Origin: a virus
Taxonomy: Duplodnaviria; Heunggongvirae; Uroviricota; Caudoviricetes
Strand: one strand, 5' to 3'
Virus record (IMG/VR): IMGVR_UViG_2574180227_000016
DNA length: 21,365 nt
Made by a program: the position numbers and the translations under genes. The notes beneath the pieces were generated by a model. It did not search any database. It was not told the origin of the DNA and was given only the letters and a program-made list of their open reading frames with translations. The first letter of the stretch is position 1; every line of letters starts with the position of its first letter. Positions 900 through 13,180 of this stretch are shown piece after piece.

Positions 900-936
900 A
901 CAAAATCAATATAAACAGCCCCTCCGGAGAGGGGCT
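900..936 (-). terminator. candidate stem-loop terminator (AGCCCCTC-CGGA-GAGGGGCT)
   Basis: Perfect 8-bp stem with 4-nt loop at 917-936. On the - strand it is followed by a moderately T-rich tract (GTTTATATTGATTTTG). Confidence 0.3.
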
Positions 937-1176
937 GGAGAGTGGCGCTATGTGCCATTGCATGGTGCCGGGTGCCTCCCGGTGAGTTCAGTATCAGCAC
1001 CTGAACCCGCACAGAAAGGATAAGGGTCGGTGACAAAACACCAGTTGCTGATTGCCCCTCCGCACAGGGGGATTCACCATGCCAGTTTCTTTTAACAAAC
1101 TCCCCGCAAACCAGACAACAGTCAACCGCCTGAATTGTGAGGCATTTAAAAATTTCAACGGGTAACTGATACCCTG

Positions 1177-1329
1177 CTAATCGCCTGATGCTTTCTTTTT
1201 CAGCAACGGGAAAGCAACAACCACCACACCCGCCACCAGCACACCGTCAGCCAGCACTGACATTATCCGGCTGCTGAAGTCCACCATCACCACCAGAAAC
1301 AGCAGGAGCGCAACCACAGCCAGACGCAT
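1177..1329 (-). CDS. small hydrophobic membrane protein (50 aa)
   Basis: Manual translation MRLAVVALLLFLVVMVDFSSRIMSVLADGVLVAGVVVVAFPLLKKKASGD. ATG lies 8 nt after the stop of the upstream TerB-like gene. Under the ORF-track length cut-off. Confidence 0.3.
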   Translation of the reverse strand: MRLAVVALLLFLVVMVDFSSRIMSVLADGVLVAGVVVVAFPLLKKKASGD

Positions 1330-1337
1330 TTTTACCG

Positions 1338-1769
1338 TCACAGATGATTCTCCAGACGAAGGCCCAGGACACCGGCAATCTCTTCCAGCACCTTGCGCTC
1401 TTCCGGCTCTATTTCGCCGTCTGCTTCGGCAATGGCCACCGCCACATCCAGCACGTCTTCCGCTTCACGCGTATCGTGTTTCACATCCTCGATCTCACGT
1501 AACGCCGCTCGACGACCAATTTTAAAGTTCGTATCCAGCTGACCGATAATGGTTGCGCTAATCGCATTAATTTCTGACGTAAACGCGGACAACGCAGGCT
1601 GGTTACGCAAGACCTGCTCGATCTTCGCTTTCTCTGAAGCCTCACATTCACCATCTGCATAGGCCACCAGATAGGCAGCATTAATAACCGCCTGTGCCAG
1701 ATCACGTTTCTCAAACTTTTTAATTTCCACTGCCGCTCGGCGGGCTTTTTTACCAAAAATACCAAACAT
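1338..1769 (-). CDS. TerB-like (tellurite-resistance TerB fold) protein
   Basis: Start set at the internal ATG (MFGIFGKK...) preceded by AAGGAA. Two copies of the TerB-type A-x-A-D-G-E motif (LVAYADGECEASEK and AIAEADGEIEPEER). Confidence 0.6.
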   Translation of the reverse strand: MFGIFGKKARRAAVEIKKFEKRDLAQAVINAAYLVAYADGECEASEKAKIEQVLRNQPALSAFTSEINAISATIIGQLDTNFKIGRRAALREIEDVKHDTREAEDVLDVAVAIAEADGEIEPEERKVLEEIAGVLGLRLENHL

Positions 1770-1937
1770 CGTGACGTTCCTTTGGGTGGGTGAGCCAACG
1801 CCCGGGAGCGATCTGCCCACAGAGAAAGTCACACTGACCACTCCGTAAGCTCACCCCCGAAAGGCTCTGTGGTTGATATGCGCCGGGCGTGGCGCAGATA
1901 CAAAAAAAGCCCGCCGAAGCGAGCCTGATAATAAATC

Positions 1938-2012
1938 TGGAGCGGGTAGCGGGAATCGAACCACGATAAGAAGGTTAACAGCCTTCCGTAATGACCTTTA
2001 TACGACTGACCC
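1938..2012 (-). pseudogene. degenerate tRNA-like sequence (tRNA-Gly-like scaffold, GUU in the anticodon loop, unpaired acceptor and T stems)
   Basis: Reverse complement reads GGGTCAGTCGTATAAAGGTCATTACGGAAGGCTGTTAACCTTCTTATCGTGGTTCGATTCCCGCTACCCGCTCCA. It has U8, a D arm, an anticodon stem GAAGG/CCTTC with loop CUGUUAA, a TTCGATT T-loop and 3' CCA, but the acceptor and T stems do not pair. Confidence 0.35.
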
Positions 2013-2637: not shown

Positions 2638-3243
2638 TCATGCGGCCTCACTTCTGCTGTTTCGCAGGTCTTTGAGTTTCTGTTGGTACTCTGCCTTGAT
2701 GGCCCTGCACTCTTCGACAGTCCAGCGATGGCGGTTATGGTTTGATTCGATTTCATCTACTGCTTCCTGCCCGATGCGGCTAATCAGTTCGACGCGATAC
2801 GGAACGAGATTTCCGCTTTTGTGCTGGTTGCACACCACGCATTGCTTGTGAATATTGCGTTCATCAAATCGGAGTTGAGGTGCCGCAGCAGTTGTCCGGT
2901 AATGTCCGGCATCCCACTGAGCAGACGTGAGCGTTCCGCACGAGATACATGGTAAGTCGCGGTCTCTTTCTCTGATGAAGGCGTTTACGGCTTGTTGGGC
3001 TTGTTTAATCCAGTAACTGCGGGGCTTTAAGGCGAGTTTTCGAATCTTCAGTTTATCTTTCTGTTTCTGCTCCTCTCGTCGTCGTTTCTTCTCTGCTGCT
3101 TTTTCCGCTTTTTCGCGTTCTTTACTTCGTCGTTCGAGTGCTAATTGAGTTCCGTGTTCCGGGCAGCACCACCACTGATTTGAGAATGCCGGGTGAAACC
3201 ATTCTTTGCATATTTTGCATTTCCTTCGCGCTGGTTTAGCCAT
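2638..3243 (-). CDS. ninG: NinG (Rap) recombination protein
   Basis: 201 aa, [26 protein letters not shown]...[19 protein letters not shown], close to lambda NinG. Start overlaps the upstream stop (TAATG). Confidence 0.85.
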
Positions 3244-3971
3244 TAAGCAGCCTCCCCTGTTACTTTCAGCATTCCGTTATCGAGCAGCTTTCTGGTCAGC
3301 CACTGTTGACCACGCCCGGTGATTTTTGTGGTGAACGATATCTGTATTCCGTGATTTGTGTTGACCGCTGTTTCTTTCACTGTGAAATAGCCGCGCTCCA
3401 TATATTCCTGCATTGGCACATTGCGCCGGGCACCTGAAGTAATAAGGATTTTGTGATCGCGCATCCACGCAAACAGTTTGTTTGGACCAATTCCAACAAC
3501 CTTTGCATAGTTTCCAATCAAAATTCCGCTGGCCTCGCCAACGCGATCGGCAAACTCAACTTTAGGTGCTGCGAGAGCAAGCTGTTTCTCCAGTTCAGCC
3601 TTCTGGTCTTCAAGGTCGGCCGCAAGGCGCAATGCCTCAGAAAAGGTTTGTGGTATTTTCGCGGTTGCCCCTTCGAGTTCTCGCCAACGGTCAACAAGAC
3701 GAGCGGTGAATTCCGGCGACAACTGAGCGACGACAATAATGCTGTCTCGCTTACCTTGTTCGCCTTCGAATATATACACGCTTGTGAATTTGTTAGGGCT
3801 AATTGTTTGTTTATTTTCAACTTTTTGCATTGGAGGAAGTTGAATCACCCCACGCTTTGCCAGACGTTCTATTGATATTCTGACATTACCGTGTTGGCTT
3901 CCCACCAACTCAGCGATTTCAATGCTTGTCATTTTGATGACGTTGCTATTTATCAGCTCATTCATTGTCAT
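3243..3971 (-). CDS. phage antirepressor-like protein (Rha-type N-terminal domain, KilA-C-type C-terminal domain)
   Basis: 242 aa with GAGAGG RBS. Domain assignment is from recalled family patterns, not a search. Confidence 0.5.
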
Positions 3972-4039
3972 GTCCTCTCATATTGAAAATTCAGCAATAA
4001 AAAACCCAGCCGAAGCTGGGTTTGTTAAGTTGTCAATTG

Positions 4040-4723
4040 TCAGTAGCGATGCAGTGAAGGCGGCAACTCTTTGTTCTTAAGCCTTTCCCATGCCAGAAGG
4101 TTCGTCGGCCCGTCAGGCTCATAAATATCTATATCCCGCGTGTGATTAATTAAAACGCCCCTCGCCCTCCCGATGGTATACGAGAACTCATAGCCGTAGT
4201 CGTGGCATATGCCGGAATAGCCAGACTGAATCAGTTTTAATGCGGGATACAACTCACGGAACAATGCCTGTGAGCGGTTGGCATAATCCCACAGCCATAC
4301 AAGGCTGTCTGTTTCTTTTGCGGAAAGCCCGTTGGGCTTCTTCTCTTGTTTGCCAGTATTTTTCTCGCACTGGCTGAAATAGCAGTCTTCCAGTTTTTCG
4401 AACACTTCCCACGCCCGATCGGTTTCGAGCATTTTTGCATGACGGGCTGCGCCGCGTTCTGTCCATAGGATGAGGGAGCGAACGTTACGGGCAATTTTCA
4501 CAGAGTAGTTAAAAGCTACTCTGTGCTTGAACTCACGTAAAGTTTCACCTTCAAGTTTGAAGAAGTGTTTTTCCTCAATGAAACGACCTTTGTTTTCGTG
4601 GTGATTCTGGCGAATACGAATAGCTTCTGTGCCGTAAAGGTGCGCCAAAAGTTCGGTAGTGATAACGGGGATCTGCTTGTAAGTAATCGTGGAGAGTGTT
4701 TCAACAGAAACTTGAGTTGTCAT
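4040..4723 (-). CDS. nin-region DNA-binding/antirepressor-like protein (ORF6N/Roi-like)
   Basis: 227 aa. N-terminus [33 protein letters not shown] resembles ORF6N-type antirepressor domains. Preceded by a 277-bp structured intergenic region. Confidence 0.45.
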
Positions 4724-4884
4724 AATGACGCCCTCGAGTGGTTTCTAAACTATCACCACCGTCAGGTTCCTAATCATCGGGTGGCGAGACGTACAGGGTT
4801 AGGAACTACCGGGAAACCAACCGGCGAGCTTTTCAGCTCCCCTATACGCCCCACCATAATTCAGATGTGCGTGTGCATACGACA

Positions 4885-4909
4885 ATAAAAAACACGCTCG
4901 CGGCGTGTC
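4885..4909 (-). terminator. rho-independent terminator inside the nin region (tR2-like candidate)
   Basis: In - strand sense: ACACGC-CGCGA-GCGTGT followed by TTTTTTATTG. Confidence 0.45.
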
Positions 4910-5000
4910 TCTGTCGCGGTTTCTATCCGGGGTTCCTAATCCCGACGCCAGATTTTGCTGGCGCGTGAGGAATATAGCCCCGAATAAATCATCACGTCAA

Positions 5001-5183
5001 TCACCTTGTTTTCCTCGCACGATGTCTTAGCCACCGGATATCCCACAGGTGAGCCGTGTAATTGAAGGTTTTAACGTCAGATTCTTTTGGGATTGGCCTG
5101 GGTTTATTTCTGGAGCGTTTCGTTGGAAGGTATTTGCAGTTTTCGCAGATGATGTCGGTGATACTTCGTCGCTGTCGCCTCAT
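5001..5183 (-). CDS. ninE: NinE
   Basis: 60 aa from the internal ATG: [60 protein letters not shown], matching lambda NinE as recalled. ATGA overlap with the upstream methyltransferase stop. Confidence 0.7.
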
Positions 5184-5707
5184 GCCGCCCTCCTGACGCC
5201 CTGCCCGATCGCCATCAATGCCGCTTTGGATACGGTAGTAAACATCCGTCGAGGACTGATGAACGGTCGCCAAATCAGCAGCATGGAACCTTTGCTGTTT
5301 CCCTTCTTCTCCAGCCCTGTCGATGGTTCGATAAAATTAATCCGTCCATCAGTGATGATGCGAACTTCGTCAACACTCTCCAGAGCCTTACTGAACCATC
5401 CGACAGACATATCCTCTGGCACAAGCATCACTACCGTCTGTCGTTGTTGTATGCACTGCTCAGCGGCTTTTTCCACCCACGGCCTGATATTGCTGTACGG
5501 TGGGTTATTCCAGATTGCACCGTGGCTTACCCACTCAGAATTGAGCGCGTCGTCGGCCTCAGTTAGCCAGTGAGCACACAGAGCATTTTTGTCGCTCGCT
5601 GCCGAATCCAGCCAGAATCCAAACTCAATATCCAGTGCATCAAAAAGCCAAAGCGGCGTTTGCCAGCAGTCCTTGTCGTGTGCTGGCGTATTTGATTTGA
5701 TAGTCAT
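5180..5707 (-). CDS. phage Dam-family DNA N6-adenine methyltransferase
   Basis: 175 aa from the ATG overlapping the NinB stop. Contains the NPPY motif (IWNNPPYS) of N6-adenine methyltransferases and an upstream WQTP motif. Confidence 0.75.
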
Positions 5708-6150
5708 GCAGCCTTCCCTTTTCGTTGTGACCATTCATACTCTCGCCAGGAGTCATCACTCCACCGCACGTTGCGCTCTGAGCCGAACCAGAACATGATT
5801 TCGATAAGCTCAGTCATGCTGGCCTTCCGCATTTTGCTGGTGCGCACACCAAGCATGACAACGCCACCGCCGATACCAGGCGCACTTCGTTGCTCCAGTT
5901 TTTTGGTCTTAAGCCACAGGGCAGTGAACAGGTCTTTCCAGTCTTCCGGCGCCAGCCGTTGACCATGCCATAGCACCTGACGCGAAACATCGTTCAGCAT
6001 CGGCCACATACGGTCATTCTGCGCTTTGCTACGCTTGGGTTCTTTAACGTGGACTTCGTGGGGTGACTTGTCGTCGATGGGTAGTGAGAGAATGGCGTCT
6101 ATGGCGTTATTTCTGATTGCTTCGTTGCGAAGCAGAAAGGTTTGCTTCAT
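5704..6150 (-). CDS. ninB: NinB (Orf-family recombination mediator)
   Basis: 148 aa from the ATG at 6150 with GGAGAG upstream. LNDVSRQVLWHGQRL and WSDDSWREYEW blocks parallel lambda NinB. Confidence 0.8.
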   Translation of the reverse strand: MKQTFLLRNEAIRNNAIDAILSLPIDDKSPHEVHVKEPKRSKAQNDRMWPMLNDVSRQVLWHGQRLAPEDWKDLFTALWLKTKKLEQRSAPGIGGGVVMLGVRTSKMRKASMTELIEIMFWFGSERNVRWSDDSWREYEWSQRKGKAA

Positions 6151-6343
6151 CTCCTGCTCTCCGGTTCCATTTTTCAGCCGCCGCAGCAACTGATGGTGCC
6201 CACGCCCCCCTGGCTTCACAGAGGTCACATTCTGCATAGCCCCACACATCAATATTTATTCCGGCCTCAACCCACAGACGAGCATTACCGCCGCAAAACG
6301 GACATTCTTTTAGCTTTGGCTGGGTTAATGATAGGTCGCTCAT
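6107..6343 (-). CDS. Lar-family restriction-alleviation-like zinc-ribbon protein
   Basis: MSDLSLTQPKLKECPFCGG...ECDLCEARG...KWNRRA has the CPFCG/CxxC and AWNRR-type signature of Lar-family proteins. GAAGGAG RBS 5 nt upstream. The 3' end overlaps the ninB start in another frame. Confidence 0.55.
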   Translation of the reverse strand: MSDLSLTQPKLKECPFCGGNARLWVEAGINIDVWGYAECDLCEARGAWAPSVAAAAEKWNRRAGDEANLSASQRSNQK

Positions 6344-6353
6344 GCTCACTCCT

Positions 6354-6569
6354 TCACTTTAAATCCAGACTCCGGATAATTCTGTTGCGCTGAAACTCAT
6401 TGTTGAGTTTGAACAACCGTCGAAGAACACGGTCACGCGGATAGCATCGTGCGGCAGGTGAATGCTCATACAACTCATCAAGCGGCAAACTGGACGATGA
6501 ACGATACCGATACCAACGCACCAACTCTTCACGAAAATTAGCCCTGACAAGCTCAGCTATCGTACTCAT
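6354..6569 (-). CDS. hypothetical protein (nin region)
   Basis: 71-aa ORF. Its ATG overlaps the stop of the upstream small ORF and its stop lies in the Lar RBS. No family recognised. Confidence 0.4.
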   Translation of the reverse strand: MSTIAELVRANFREELVRWYRYRSSSSLPLDELYEHSPAARCYPRDRVLRRLFKLNNEFQRNRIIRSLDLK

Positions 6570-6658
6570 TTCTTAAAGCCTCCAATTACTCTTCCCCAAA
6601 TAAAAAGGCCTGCGATTACCAGCAGGCCTGTTACAAGCTCAGTGATGTAGATGGTCAT
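6566..6658 (-). CDS. small hydrophobic peptide (30 aa)
   Basis: MTIYITELVTGLLVIAGLFIWGRVIGGFKK. ATGA overlap with the ren stop and TGA/ATG overlap with the next ORF. Under the ORF-track cut-off. Confidence 0.25.
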   Translation of the reverse strand: MTIYITELVTGLLVIAGLFIWGRVIGGFKK

Positions 6659-6945
6659 CTTTTAACTCCATATACCGCCAATACCCGTTTCATCACTGCA
6701 CTCTGGCGACACTCCTTAAAAATCAGGTTCGTGCTCACCTTTCCTTCCCGTTCTTCCCTGGTAGCAAACCGGTAATACACCGTTCGCCAGACCTTACCAT
6801 CAATGACAAGGATTCCTGCCCGCGCCATTTTAGCCGCAGCCTGATTTATACTGGTTACGGTTGCGCCTGTTACCGCGGAAACGTCCTGTGCACAGAAGTT
6901 CTTATGCGCCCCGAGGTAATGAATAATTGCCTCTTTGCCCGTCAT
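6655..6945 (-). CDS. ren: Ren
   Basis: 96 aa, MTGKEAIIHYLGAHKNFCAQDVSAVTGATVTSINQAAAKMARAGILVIDGKVWRTVYYRFATREEREGK, near-identical to lambda Ren as recalled. Confidence 0.85.
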   Translation of the reverse strand: MTGKEAIIHYLGAHKNFCAQDVSAVTGATVTSINQAAAKMARAGILVIDGKVWRTVYYRFATREEREGKVSTNLIFKECRQSAVMKRVLAVYGVKR

Positions 6946-7643
6946 ACACTTGCTCCTTTCAGTCCGAACTTAGCTTTAATTTCTGCGATCTTCGCCAGAG
7001 CCTGTGCTCGATTTAGAGGTCTGCCGCCCATGACAGGAAGTTGTTTTACTGGTTCAGGTATCGTCTCACCACGGTTAATTCGTGCTGTCATACAGGTCAG
7101 TTCATCGGCAGCCTTGCGCCGTAATTCCGCGTCAGTCAGCGCATTGGCCCGCATGTTCTGGTACAGGTTGGTAACCAGCCAGTAGTGCGCGTTTGATTTC
7201 CACGGATAAGACTCTGCATCCGGATACAGGCCACGCTTCCGGCAATACTCGTAAACCATATCAACCAGCTCGCTGACGTTTGGCAGTCCGGCGATAACGG
7301 ATGCTTCTTCCCGGCACCATGCAACAAACTGCCCGGGTGATGGAAGAAATGGTCGATTCTGCCGACGGGCTACGCGCATTCCTGCGTTAACCTGTTCCAT
7401 CGAGGTGATCCCGTTTTCCCGGAAAGCCAGAACCCACTGGCGGCGGATTTCATTCAGTTCGTTCTGGCCCCGGTTAGCCAGACTCGCCGGGAAAGTTGCC
7501 AGTAACTGGCTGAACACACCGTTGATGATCTGCGCTACCTGTTGTACCTGCGGCTTTTCGTCGTACTGTTCCGGCATGTTGTTGGCGATCCGACGCATCT
7601 GCTCACGGTCAAAGTTAACCATCTGTGCGGCGATGTTTTTCAT
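6942..7643 (-). CDS. P: replication protein P (DnaB helicase loader)
   Basis: 233 aa, [44 protein letters not shown]..., essentially lambda P. Overlaps the O stop by 4 nt. Confidence 0.9.
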   Translation of the reverse strand: MKNIAAQMVNFDREQMRRIANNMPEQYDEKPQVQQVAQIINGVFSQLLATFPASLANRGQNELNEIRRQWVLAFRENGITSMEQVNAGMRVARRQNRPFLPSPGQFVAWCREEASVIAGLPNVSELVDMVYEYCRKRGLYPDAESYPWKSNAHYWLVTNLYQNMRANALTDAELRRKAADELTCMTARINRGETIPEPVKQLPVMGGRPLNRAQALAKIAEIKAKFGLKGASV

Positions 7644-10151: not shown

Positions 10152-10493
10152 ATGGCGTTCACTGACCTTGAATATCAAGCGGTCAAAAAAGAAGTTCACC
10201 AATTCATTGAAAGCATAAGGCCGCCTGAACATATCCGCAATGAACTGGATATTGTTTATAGCATCAATGACCAAACGATAGATATCGGCGAACAGCGCCC
10301 CGTGTGGCAGGGCAACCCAGGTGAAACAAACATCCTGCCATCAGCAAGAATCAAGTACATACGTTCTCTGGATAGATGGAAAATCTATTGGATGCGGAAG
10401 GATATGAAATGGCATCAGTACAGTACTGAACTTTCGCTGACTGATGCGCTTGAGCTTGTGCGTGCTGACCCGGATTGCTGCTTCTTCGGATGA
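10152..10493 (+). CDS. hypothetical protein co-transcribed with cI (cargo gene A, 113 aa)
   Basis: GAGGAGGA RBS directly after the cI stop. Tryptophan-rich C-terminal half (WKIYWMRKDMKWHQY). Flanked by a 15-nt direct repeat. Confidence 0.6.
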   Translation: MAFTDLEYQAVKKEVHQFIESIRPPEHIRNELDIVYSINDQTIDIGEQRPVWQGNPGETNILPSARIKYIRSLDRWKIYWMRKDMKWHQYSTELSLTDALELVRADPDCCFFG

Positions 10494-10563
10494 GTGAAGA
10501 GACGTTTGGATGATGGATGGTCGCAGAGATGCTCGTAGAGCATACAGCGATGCAGGAGAATTT

Positions 10564-10998
10564 ATGGCACTTAATTTAGAAAGAATATCTTTTATAACCC
10601 CATTTGATAGCAGCGAAGAACCCAACCAACCGACGCTTAATTTTACATGCAATGAATTTCCTGCGCGGCTATCAATTGATTTCAGGGTTGGTATGATCGG
10701 GTTGAAACCAAATTCAAGATATAATTTGGGTATTATGGTAATCCCCGCGCACCTAATTATAAAAAAAGGTGAGGAAATTCAATTCCCTGACGGCTCTTCG
10801 GAATCAGTTTCACTTTTCATCGATACGAAAGATAGCCATTTTGAAACAGGGGTTGGCGGACAGGTAATAGTAACATTGAAAGAAATTAGGGTCCCAGCTA
10901 AAGGGCTGTATAGTGTTATAGGGATATTGCAAGATAATGAAGACCCTAAAAATGAACTTCATAAAAATGAATCATTTTTCACCGTAGAGCTATTATGA
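10564..10998 (+). CDS. hypothetical protein (cargo gene B, 144 aa), AT-rich
   Basis: AGGAGA RBS 5 nt before the ATG at 10564. No TM segment and no recognised family. Confidence 0.55.
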   Translation: MALNLERISFITPFDSSEEPNQPTLNFTCNEFPARLSIDFRVGMIGLKPNSRYNLGIMVIPAHLIIKKGEEIQFPDGSSESVSLFIDTKDSHFETGVGGQVIVTLKEIRVPAKGLYSVIGILQDNEDPKNELHKNESFFTVELL

Positions 10999-11615
10999 GT
11001 GACGACAGTAATTTAAATAATCATGGAAAGCAAGACACCAACATATCTGAAAGCCGGAGGTTGAAGGTTGTTGGCGGTTCTGATTTTGAGGCTGAATTTG
11101 ATAATTCTCCCACCAAGGTGCAAAATAATTACATAAAACCGCCACAAACGGAGGAAGAAGTGGGAACGATCAGCAGAGAGGAACTTGATGCTCGCTTAGC
11201 TGCTAATAAAGCAGAGATGGAGTCTATTGCTTCCTCCATTAGGGCTGACATGGCTCTATCTCGTGAAAGCGTTAATGTCCAATTTGCATCACTTAATGCA
11301 GCCATAAGCTCTCTATCGTCCAAGATCGATGGAAAGATGGATAGCGCTGCTGGCGATATAAAAGCAATTAATGGGAGATTCGAAGGAATTCAAGGACAAA
11401 TAACAGGGGTTAATACCGCAATTAGTGGTGTTCAGTCGGGTATTTCTATACGATTAGCCATTTTTAGTGTCATTATCGCTGTAATAGTTGCGATTCCCGG
11501 GCTGGTATCAGCTTTAAAGTCAGACCACGCACCTTTGCAACAGCCTTCCACTTTGCAAGCGCCGCCACAAAATACCCAGCCAACAGACAACAAAAAAATC
11601 ACTCCCCAGCATTAA
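10995..11615 (+). CDS. hypothetical membrane-anchored protein (cargo gene C, 206 aa)
   Basis: ATGA overlap with gene B. Polar N-terminus, repetitive Ser/Ala/Ile-rich central segment, one predicted TM helix (IRLAIFSVIIAVIVAIPGLVSAL) and a Pro/Gln-rich tail. Followed by a strong terminator. Confidence 0.6.
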   Translation: MSDDSNLNNHGKQDTNISESRRLKVVGGSDFEAEFDNSPTKVQNNYIKPPQTEEEVGTISREELDARLAANKAEMESIASSIRADMALSRESVNVQFASLNAAISSLSSKIDGKMDSAAGDIKAINGRFEGIQGQITGVNTAISGVQSGISIRLAIFSVIIAVIVAIPGLVSALKSDHAPLQQPSTLQAPPQNTQPTDNKKITPQH

Positions 11616-12111: not shown

Positions 12112-12495
12112 ATGACACGCAGAACTCAGTTCAAAGGCAATTCACGTTCTCGTCGTCGTGAGCGTTTAAAGGCAAAGGCATTAGCTAACTGCGTACTGGC
12201 CCGCGAAGAAGCAATAAGTTCAGAAGTATTACACCGCCCTACTCTAAGCAGAGCGCAGATTCAGGCTAAAGGTACTCACGAAACGCCTGAGCGCATAGAA
12301 GACGCTAAGCCAATTAAGTTCATGGCACAGGACGTGATCTGGCAACAGAAAGAATACAGACGCAATCTGGAGCGAGCAGCCATTGTGTACGCGAATGAGT
12401 TTGGACATAAGCAACCAGAAACTGGTGTATGTCTTCCAAACGTAGCCATTTACGCGGCAGGCTACCGGAAATCAAAACAACTGACGGCGAGGTGA
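12112..12495 (+). CDS. N: N-type antitermination protein with N-terminal arginine-rich motif
   Basis: AGGAGG RBS. N-terminus MTRRTQFKGNSRSRRRERLKAKA is an arginine-rich motif. First gene downstream of PL/nutL. Confidence 0.7.
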   Translation: MTRRTQFKGNSRSRRRERLKAKALANCVLAREEAISSEVLHRPTLSRAQIQAKGTHETPERIEDAKPIKFMAQDVIWQQKEYRRNLERAAIVYANEFGHKQPETGVCLPNVAIYAAGYRKSKQLTAR

Positions 12496-12556
12496 CTTGT
12501 GTTGGTCGCCAGAAAATGAGATTAGGCAGCAAACCACTTATTTGAGAGGAATTAAT

Positions 12557-13180
12557 ATGTCATCAATCCGCTTAACTACGAGAATGAAAGAGGAAATCGC
12601 TCGTAACGCTTTAATTAAGTCTGGGGTTTTCACTGAACTTGAAGAAGTAACAAAGTTAAAGAACCAGCTTGCACTTGACGCCAGAGTTATTGCGTTTGGC
12701 GGTAAAAAGAAAACTGAGGAAGTGGATCAGTTATCATCCAAGTTGGTAGCTATAAGTGAAGAACTTGAAAAGATGGGATGTTCATTTTACTCATACGATG
12801 TTAGTTCTACTTCAATTTATCTGACTGTATCTGGCAGAAGGGTTGGATGGCATTCATATGGGAAAGACGGCAACGGCAAAGATATATTGCTCCCTACTCC
12901 GACCAAAGATAAATGCATGTTTGACGCAGAGCACGAAATAACAAAAAGGTTTGATGAAATCTGCGCATTGCAACAAAAACTTGAAGCCAAGAAAAAGGAT
13001 ATCGAATCAAATGTATGGGCTGCTTTAAACTCAGTCACAACAGTTAAGCGATTTATTGAAGTTTGGCCTGAAAGCAAAGAATTGCTACCAAAAGAAGCAG
13101 ATAAAGCAAGTACAGCACTTCCTGCTTTACGGGTAGAAGATTTGAATAAGATGATTGGACTTCCTTCCGAGGCCGCATAA
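12557..13180 (+). CDS. hypothetical protein (207 aa), AT-rich cargo between N and cIII
   Basis: Start placed at the internal ATG with GAGAGGA RBS (the track ORF begins with TTG at 12497). Lysine/glutamate-rich, no recognised family. Confidence 0.55.
   Translation: MSSIRLTTRMKEEIARNALIKSGVFTELEEVTKLKNQLALDARVIAFGGKKKTEEVDQLSSKLVAISEELEKMGCSFYSYDVSSTSIYLTVSGRRVGWHSYGKDGNGKDILLPTPTKDKCMFDAEHEITKRFDEICALQQKLEAKKKDIESNVWAALNSVTTVKRFIEVWPESKELLPKEADKASTALPALRVEDLNKMIGLPSEAA

Follow-up and report, generated by a model that had tools for sequence, protein, structure and literature searches.

A phage N6-adenine methyltransferase gene and a Lar-family gene as separate accessory genes in a lambdoid nin region

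In the 21,365-nucleotide stretch of phage DNA analysed here (IMG/VR record IMGVR_UViG_2574180227_000016, Caudoviricetes; below, the window is this whole stretch), two genes on the minus strand of a lambda-type nin region encode a phage N6-adenine methyltransferase (dam, 5180-5707) and a Lar-family zinc-ribbon protein (lar, 6107-6343). Both are already known and annotated accessory genes of Stx-type lambdoid phages, and nothing about them is new. We consider it probable that the two are independent of each other, belong to the delayed-early PR (nin) operon of a Stx-type lambdoid prophage and have the roles proposed below. An initial annotation of the window had read them as a pair of epigenetic or anti-restriction morons expressed early from PR.

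Two accessory genes in a nin operon

The 175-residue methyltransferase scores 218.4 bits against PF05869 'Dam' (cut-off 28.1, E = 6.4e-65) and 265.9 bits against the TIGR01712 phage_N6A_met equivalog model (cut-off 97.05). The 78-residue Lar-like protein scores 41.3 bits against PF14354 (cut-off 28.6) and 62.3 bits against TIGR03655 (cut-off 39.6), and it matches phrog_599 with an E value of 9e-39. The genes flanking dam are ninB (5704-6150, minus strand; 148 residues, the Orf recombination mediator), which matches PF05772 (E = 9.3e-48) and phrog_72, and ninE (5001-5183, minus strand; 60 residues), which matches PF05322 (E = 2.7e-43). The matches of all four proteins lie far beyond chance.

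Along the minus strand, from 5' to 3', the order is ren (6655-6945; phrog_142), a 30-codon open reading frame (ORF) carrying a hairpin, a DUF7301 gene, lar, ninB, dam and ninE. The stop codon of ninB and the start codon of dam share an ATGA at 5704-5707, as do the stop codon of dam and the start codon of ninE at 5180-5183; we read both junctions from the sequence, and the boundaries set by PGAP agree with them. The codons of the catalytic motif IV of the methyltransferase, NPPY at residues 68-71, occupy 5495-5506. Upstream, the 3' end of lar overlaps the 5' end of ninB by 44 nt (6107-6150), and a Shine-Dalgarno sequence, AAGGAG, stands 5 nt ahead of the lar ATG at 6343. The initial annotation had given the methyltransferase and Lar-like identities, the NPPY motif, the ATGA coupling on both sides of dam and the overlap of lar with the start of ninB, and in all of these it is borne out by the profile scores and by the sequence.

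The start codons used here are those of the PGAP calls in two near-identical prophages, of E. coli SCU-104 and of O26:H11 strain 11368. Longer program-listed ORFs at 5180-5734, 5704-6252 and 6107-6349 open at upstream in-frame start codons, which we do not take as genuine. The plus-strand ORFs at 5049-5573, 5589-5798 and 6142-6393 match no family and were treated as spurious. No regulatory RNA was found within 5180-6343, either by Rfam or by blastn with Rac ralA.

A terminator scan places an intrinsic terminator, a G+C-rich hairpin followed by a T-run, at 6629..6606 on the minus strand, upstream of the DUF7301 gene, lar, ninB, dam and ninE; the DUF7301 gene (6354-6569, minus strand; 71 residues, PF23975, E = 1.9e-25) is the first gene past it. 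The hairpin is identical to that in the spacer between ren and ninB in lambda, its flanks match there almost throughout (lambda 40570-40640), and we take it to be lambda tR2. A crude consensus scan picked up no second terminator-like site on this strand from ren to the end of ninE. The same scan found no promoter-like site over that interval, and neither kind of site on the minus strand between 5000 and 6600.

Because this tR2-like terminator lies upstream of lar and dam, their expression should require N antitermination, that is, it should be delayed-early. Transcription from PR, antiterminated by N, would read through tR2 into DUF7301, lar, ninB, dam and ninE, and translation of the methyltransferase is presumably coupled to that of ninB through the ATGA. 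Both the timing and the coupling are carried over from lambda, which counts as a weakness of our reading. Expression 'early from PR', as first proposed, is right insofar as the genes lie on the same strand downstream of PR with no promoter-like site intervening, and has to be amended to delayed-early in view of the hairpin. An N homologue is present at 12112-12495. The tR2-like hairpin falls inside the coding sequence of the 30-codon ORF (6566-6658, minus strand), which encodes the hydrophobic peptide MTIYITELVTGLLVIAGLFIWGRVIGGFKK and matches phrog_5907 (E = 4e-17); the DNA of this ORF also occurs in lambda, between ren and ninB.

Strictly defined, a moron is an independently transcribed insert: it carries both a promoter and a terminator of its own and is expressed in the prophage state. 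Neither dam nor lar is a moron of this kind, because both lack such signals and overlap their neighbors; both are overlapping members of the nin operon. Expression of the identical dam gene of phage Phi24B (clone CM2) changed significantly on induction and is linked to the lytic cycle. Four of the five CMAT genes analysed in Phi24B show such lytic-cycle-linked expression, and the exception described is CM18, not dam. ATGA overlaps and tight packing are the norm in nin regions (PMC8022706).

The surrounding block is common. Over 1.8 kb (4900-6700), the window is 98.8% identical to E. coli SCU-104, in which PGAP has set the same boundaries and assigned the names 'NinE family protein', 'phage N-6-adenine-methyltransferase', 'recombination protein NinB', 'Lar family restriction alleviation protein' and 'DUF7301 family protein'. 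The block also occurs in the Stx1 prophage of O26:H11 strain 11368, with identical PGAP calls and names, and 114 phage records, mostly of Stx-converting phages, cover at least 80% of it as query. A comparative study lists lar among the conserved genes of Stx phages (PMC3430580). The Lar-like protein is 100% identical to H0103 of VT2-Sakai and to the product of the Phi24B gene annotated 'lar', and the DUF7301 gene, which is present in VT2-Sakai as H0102, accompanies lar in Stx phages.

The two genes are separate mosaic cassettes and not one system, since each is found without the other. In HK97, the order is ninB-dam-ninE, and gp60, a small gene upstream of ninB, gave no match to the Lar family; we considered it as a hidden Lar relative and rejected it for want of Pfam support. 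Conversely, lar overlaps ninB in Salmonella P22-like prophages, where ninE follows ninB directly and there is no dam, and an Enterobacter prophage has lar-ninB without dam. The allele counts differ as well: the dam allele (at least 95% nucleotide identity) occurs in 1566 of 5426 complete E. coli genomes (29%) and the lar allele in 486 (9%). Compared with lambda, the stretch from tR2 to ninB contains lar and the DUF7301 gene as an insertion, and dam occupies the place that ninC-ninD has between ninB and ninE. The idea of a linked pair is thus not sustained by the HK97, Salmonella and Enterobacter arrangements. More distant Lar-family genes lie in tightly packed early regions, with ERF and SSB, RusA, radical SAM, HNH and Thy1 genes as neighbors, and none of the 17 Lar-family loci sampled has a PF05869 gene beside lar. 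At one Serratia prophage locus (L018, 3508-4035), a gene for a 175-residue protein lies upstream of a RalR-like Lar-family gene and overlaps it; this protein has weak generic methyltransferase matches below the cut-off (E = 0.012-0.015) and does not belong to PF05869.

The methyltransferase, its target and its use

The window methyltransferase is identical to the VT2-Sakai dam product (BAA94133, from AP000422) across all 175 residues. This enzyme, M.EcoVT2Dam, is encoded in the same position between ninB and ninE with the same ATGA overlaps, and the DNA around dam is 98.2% identical across 1.7 kb. The two phages differ upstream, where the window has a lambda-type P and ren and the P of VT2-Sakai is recorded as HK022 P-like. 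Phage Phi24B carries the same dam gene as the window, and the HK97 methyltransferase is 99% identical, with 2 of 175 residues changed. The target of M.EcoVT2Dam is given as 5'-GATC-3' in a passage of a methylome paper that cites Radlinska & Bujnicki 2001 (PMC6602927). Because the window enzyme is identical to a protein reported in that passage to be GATC-specific, it very likely methylates GATC as well. The initial annotation had called for the methylation motif of the enzyme to be mapped, and the same passage shows that a specificity is already in print for the identical protein.

In an alignment of seven sequences that includes T1 Dam and HP1 Dam and spans phages of Gram-negative, Gram-positive and actinobacterial hosts, W15, T17, P18, L33, D34, the NPPY motif (68-71), R122 and F125 are invariant. 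The Dam proteins of phage T1 and Haemophilus phage HP1, both members of PF05869, share 33% and 38% identity with the window enzyme, respectively, as well as the invariant WxTP, LD, NPPY, R and F positions. All three are small proteins without a separate large target-recognition domain, and all three are orphans encoded in phage early regions; T1 Dam differs by 45 additional residues at its N terminus and by an insertion within the protein. In the window, dam is flanked by ninB and ninE with no restriction endonuclease gene adjacent, and the best PADLOC models for the protein are those for 'orphan methyltransferase'. A sequence search turned up no relative of solved structure.

Despite its name, the enzyme shows no detectable similarity to the Dam of E. 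coli K-12 (BLASTP E = 7.5), and PF05869 is the only Pfam family that it matches at E values up to 10; PF02086 is not matched. We therefore rejected a relationship to the host Dam. The K-12 enzyme, an alpha-class member of PF02086 like T4 Dam and DpnM, shares the reported target, G(m6A)TC, and the chemistry of the window enzyme and belongs to another family. The term 'Dam family' used in the initial annotation is correct as the name of PF05869 and misleading as to descent: it denotes a common name and target, with no ancestry visible in the sequences.

We also considered a non-specific methylase of the M.EcoGII or Hia5 type and rejected it, because the window protein matches PF05869 alone and those enzymes belong to other families; its identical counterpart in VT2-Sakai, moreover, is the one reported as GATC-specific. 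M.EcoGII is a beta-class prophage enzyme, and Hia5/M.HaeV is alpha-class and Dam-related (PMC5778455, PMC3299994). M.EcoGII (349 residues) and Hia5 (about 281 residues) are larger than the window enzyme and differ from it in architecture. They share with it the status of prophage-borne orphan adenine methylases that, in the conditions that were tried, appear silent in their host strain.

Amino-methyltransferases of this kind transfer a methyl group from S-adenosylmethionine (SAM) to the N6 of adenine. After induction or infection, the window enzyme would methylate GATC sites on the replicating phage DNA and so would supplement the host Dam. Any protection from restriction would be confined to GATC-specific nucleases that are sensitive to N6-methyladenine, and a broad anti-restriction role is weak, because a GATC methylase largely duplicates the host Dam. 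The description of the enzyme as 'epigenetic/anti-restriction' was accordingly overstated, the identical VT2-Sakai enzyme having, in the passage cited above, the host Dam's own site as its target. Any benefit of the enzyme to the phage is putative, given that the host Dam already methylates GATC, and the sequence is somewhat depleted in this site: the window contains 57 GATC, against 78.8 ± 8.5 expected from dinucleotide shuffles, and all 100 shuffles held at least 57. Both points weigh against the role that we propose. Within the 2.3 kb from ninE to ren (4674-6986), the only GATC site lies at 5207.

Somewhat short of an even chance, in our estimate, is the alternative that the methyltransferase mainly serves phage physiology and not protection from restriction, by keeping the fast-replicating phage DNA fully methylated at GATC. 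The benefits could include the avoidance of MutH nicking or SeqA binding, the timing of replication or packaging, or the stabilization of lysogeny decisions. This alternative agrees with a target that is the same as that of the host Dam and with the status of the enzyme as an orphan without a nuclease partner. Host Dam leaves the virion DNA of lambda and P22 undermethylated at Dam sites (PMC8022706), and a passage of PMC3342100 that cites Murphy et al. 2008 reports host Dam to be essential for stable lysogeny of the Stx phage 933W. On account of the lambda and P22 virions and of 933W lysogeny, topping up GATC methylation for the purposes of the phage is no less likely than a protective role against restriction. 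On the other side, we found no deletion experiment on a phage dam in the literature, and the hosts of the T1 and HP1 enzymes could have relevant GATC-specific restriction, which would leave room for a benefit in host range.

The Lar-like protein and its junction with ninB

The Lar-like protein has two cysteine knuckles, Cys14/Cys17 and Cys39/Cys42, and a C-terminal AWNRRAGDE motif. A search with the Lar-family profile yielded 699 members, against 6 proteins from a single-sequence search. In 55 aligned members, K12, C14, F16, C17, C39 and C42 are invariant and P13, P15, G18, W59 and R62 are at least 90% conserved, giving the consensus KPCPFCG...CxxC...AWNRRA. The AlphaFold2 model built on the family alignment has a mean predicted local distance difference test (pLDDT) score of 79.9, with a confident core at residues 11-60 (block means of 85-94) that consists of two strands (21-27, 33-39) and one helix (52-60); confidence is low in the tail, 61-78. 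A search by sequence against solved structures gave only marginal matches to eL43 zinc ribbons (best E = 0.009), and the top matches in Foldseek, none of them significant, are zinc ribbons of RNA-polymerase subunits and TFIIS and double-stranded RNA-binding domains. The zinc ribbon is well supported as the fold class of the protein, and zinc binding is presumed, but this fold is uninformative on function.

The closest point of reference is the Lar protein of the Rac prophage, also called RalR, with which the window protein shares 36% identity over 58 residues and all four cysteines. The two have their Pfam and NCBIfam family in common, as well as the WN(R/K)R motif and small size, and both are encoded in a phage early operon beside recombination genes. 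They differ in that Rac lar belongs to the PL/recET operon and the window gene to the PR/nin operon, and in that the window protein has a 16-residue C-terminal tail whose codons overlap ninB. By its sequence, the window protein is a family member and not an orthologue of RalR.

King and Murray are said to have found in 1995 that Rac Lar alleviates restriction and enhances modification. To our knowledge, type I restriction alleviation together with modification enhancement has been reported for Rac Lar only. By extension, in the early lytic phase the Lar-like protein would transiently alleviate type I restriction of the EcoKI kind, an effect of the same sort as that of lambda Ral; the window shows no evident homologue of Ral. 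We regard alleviation of type I restriction as the best available guess for this protein, at roughly even odds. Several results weigh against it. The protein scores 27.6 bits against the RalR equivalog model NF007260, whose cut-off is 113; its predicted structure has no significant Foldseek match in the PDB (best E = 0.9); we found no experiment on the Lar-like protein of the Stx-phage clade, and the functional reports that we found concern Rac RalR only; and Rac RalR itself is reported to be a toxin, a non-specific DNase that cuts methylated and unmethylated DNA alike and is controlled by the RalA RNA (PMC4041452). Because of this last report, 'restriction alleviation' may not be the direct activity. 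The anti-restriction label first given to the gene appears overstated, as it transfers function by homology, at the identity noted above, from a single protein whose biochemistry is disputed.

The report on RalR suggests another reading, in which the window protein is a DNA-damaging toxin of the RalR type and alleviates restriction indirectly, through the damage-triggered host ClpXP pathway. RalR and Lar are the same Rac protein and belong to the same Pfam and NCBIfam family as the window protein, which shares the four cysteines and the WNRR motif with it, and ClpXP-dependent host alleviation is described, in published abstracts, as set off when replication or recombination gives rise to unmodified target sites. 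We nevertheless consider this reading unlikely. The identity to RalR and the equivalog score are low, and the AlphaFold2 model is a ribbon of about 50 residues with one helix, lacking a significant match to any solved structure, nuclease or other. The window also has no homologue of the RalA antitoxin RNA: blastn with Rac ralA gave chance matches of 10-16 nt (E of at least 0.7), and an Rfam scan of the window reported no RalA RNA, although we did not check that Rfam holds a RalA model. Finally, a toxin-antitoxin role makes little sense for a gene located in a lytic operon. The preferred guess for the Lar-like protein remains alleviation of type I restriction.

At the junction between lar and ninB, the Shine-Dalgarno sequence and ATG of ninB sit within the lar codons for RRAGDE, part of the most conserved motif of the family. 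The overlap is also 44 nt long in Salmonella prophages, in which Lar is 49% identical, and is 29 nt long in the Enterobacter prophage. When the E. coli and Salmonella DNA is aligned across lar and ninB, near-identical flanks, namely the ribosome-binding site and ATG of lar on one side and the WNRRAGDE codons running into ninB on the other, enclose a zinc-ribbon core that has diverged strongly. Mosaics of this pattern are usual among lambdoid phages. DNA coding for AWNRRAGDE is found in the window at 6107-6170 (minus strand) and in locus L011 at 5190-5260.

Such a junction could also mean that the Lar-like protein of lambdoid nin regions assists the NinB/Orf recombination mediator as a partner or regulates it, and that the name 'restriction alleviation' is misleading for this clade. 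The overlap has been retained in E. coli, Salmonella and Enterobacter even though the core has diverged to 49% identity or less, and the translation signals of ninB lie inside the conserved RRAGDE motif. Elsewhere, Rac lar/ralR adjoins recT-recE, one homologue, in Serratia, is part of an ERF/SSB region, and another, in a Ruminococcus phage, is two genes away from RusA. Tight packing and overlaps are, however, normal for all nin genes (PMC8022706), ninB is widespread without lar, as in lambda and HK97, and other Lar-family genes adjoin unrelated radical SAM, Thy1 and HNH genes. A mosaic recombination boundary accounts more simply for the conserved junction, and we regard a partnership with NinB as very unlikely.

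Other features of the window

On the minus strand, directly 3' of ninE, Rfam identifies c4-a1b1 (4924-4977), isrK (4887-4964) and a C4 antisense RNA (4777-4861). Past these RNAs, on the same strand, lie an ORF6N/P22AR_C antirepressor gene (4040-4723) and then a KilAC/Rha antirepressor gene (3243-3971), and a promoter-like sequence, TTGACG-18-TATATT, is found at 5000..4971. Taken together, 3243-4977 looks like an antirepressor module of the P1/P7 immI type or the Gifsy-1 IsrK type inserted between ninE and ninG. It suits the idea of a moron better than dam or lar does.

Two further positions differ from lambda. Directly after N, where lambda has ral, the window has a plus-strand gene (12497-13180) of the Nmad5 family (PF18757, 'nucleotide modification associated domain 5', E = 1.8e-70). 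A plus-strand cassette at 10152-11615, directly after the gene for a cI-like repressor, occupies the position of rexAB in lambda. Its first gene, of the DUF3024 type, matches PDC-S43, one of the candidate defence families in PADLOC (E = 7e-42), and is followed by two ORFs (10510-10998 and 10995-11615) with no family above threshold; the whole may be a defence cassette expressed from the prophage.

The gene for the Q antiterminator spans 2076-2594. The region downstream of Q is where Stx phages carry stx. In the window, this region (907-2012, minus strand) contains a tRNA-like match at 1943-2012 (32.6 bits), a TerB-family gene at 1338-1841 and the sRNA STnc100 at 907-1111; it contains no toxin gene.

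As a whole, the locus has little discovery value, and its outcome lies in corrections, namely to the family of the methylase, to the description of the two genes as morons and as one system and to the label given to Lar.

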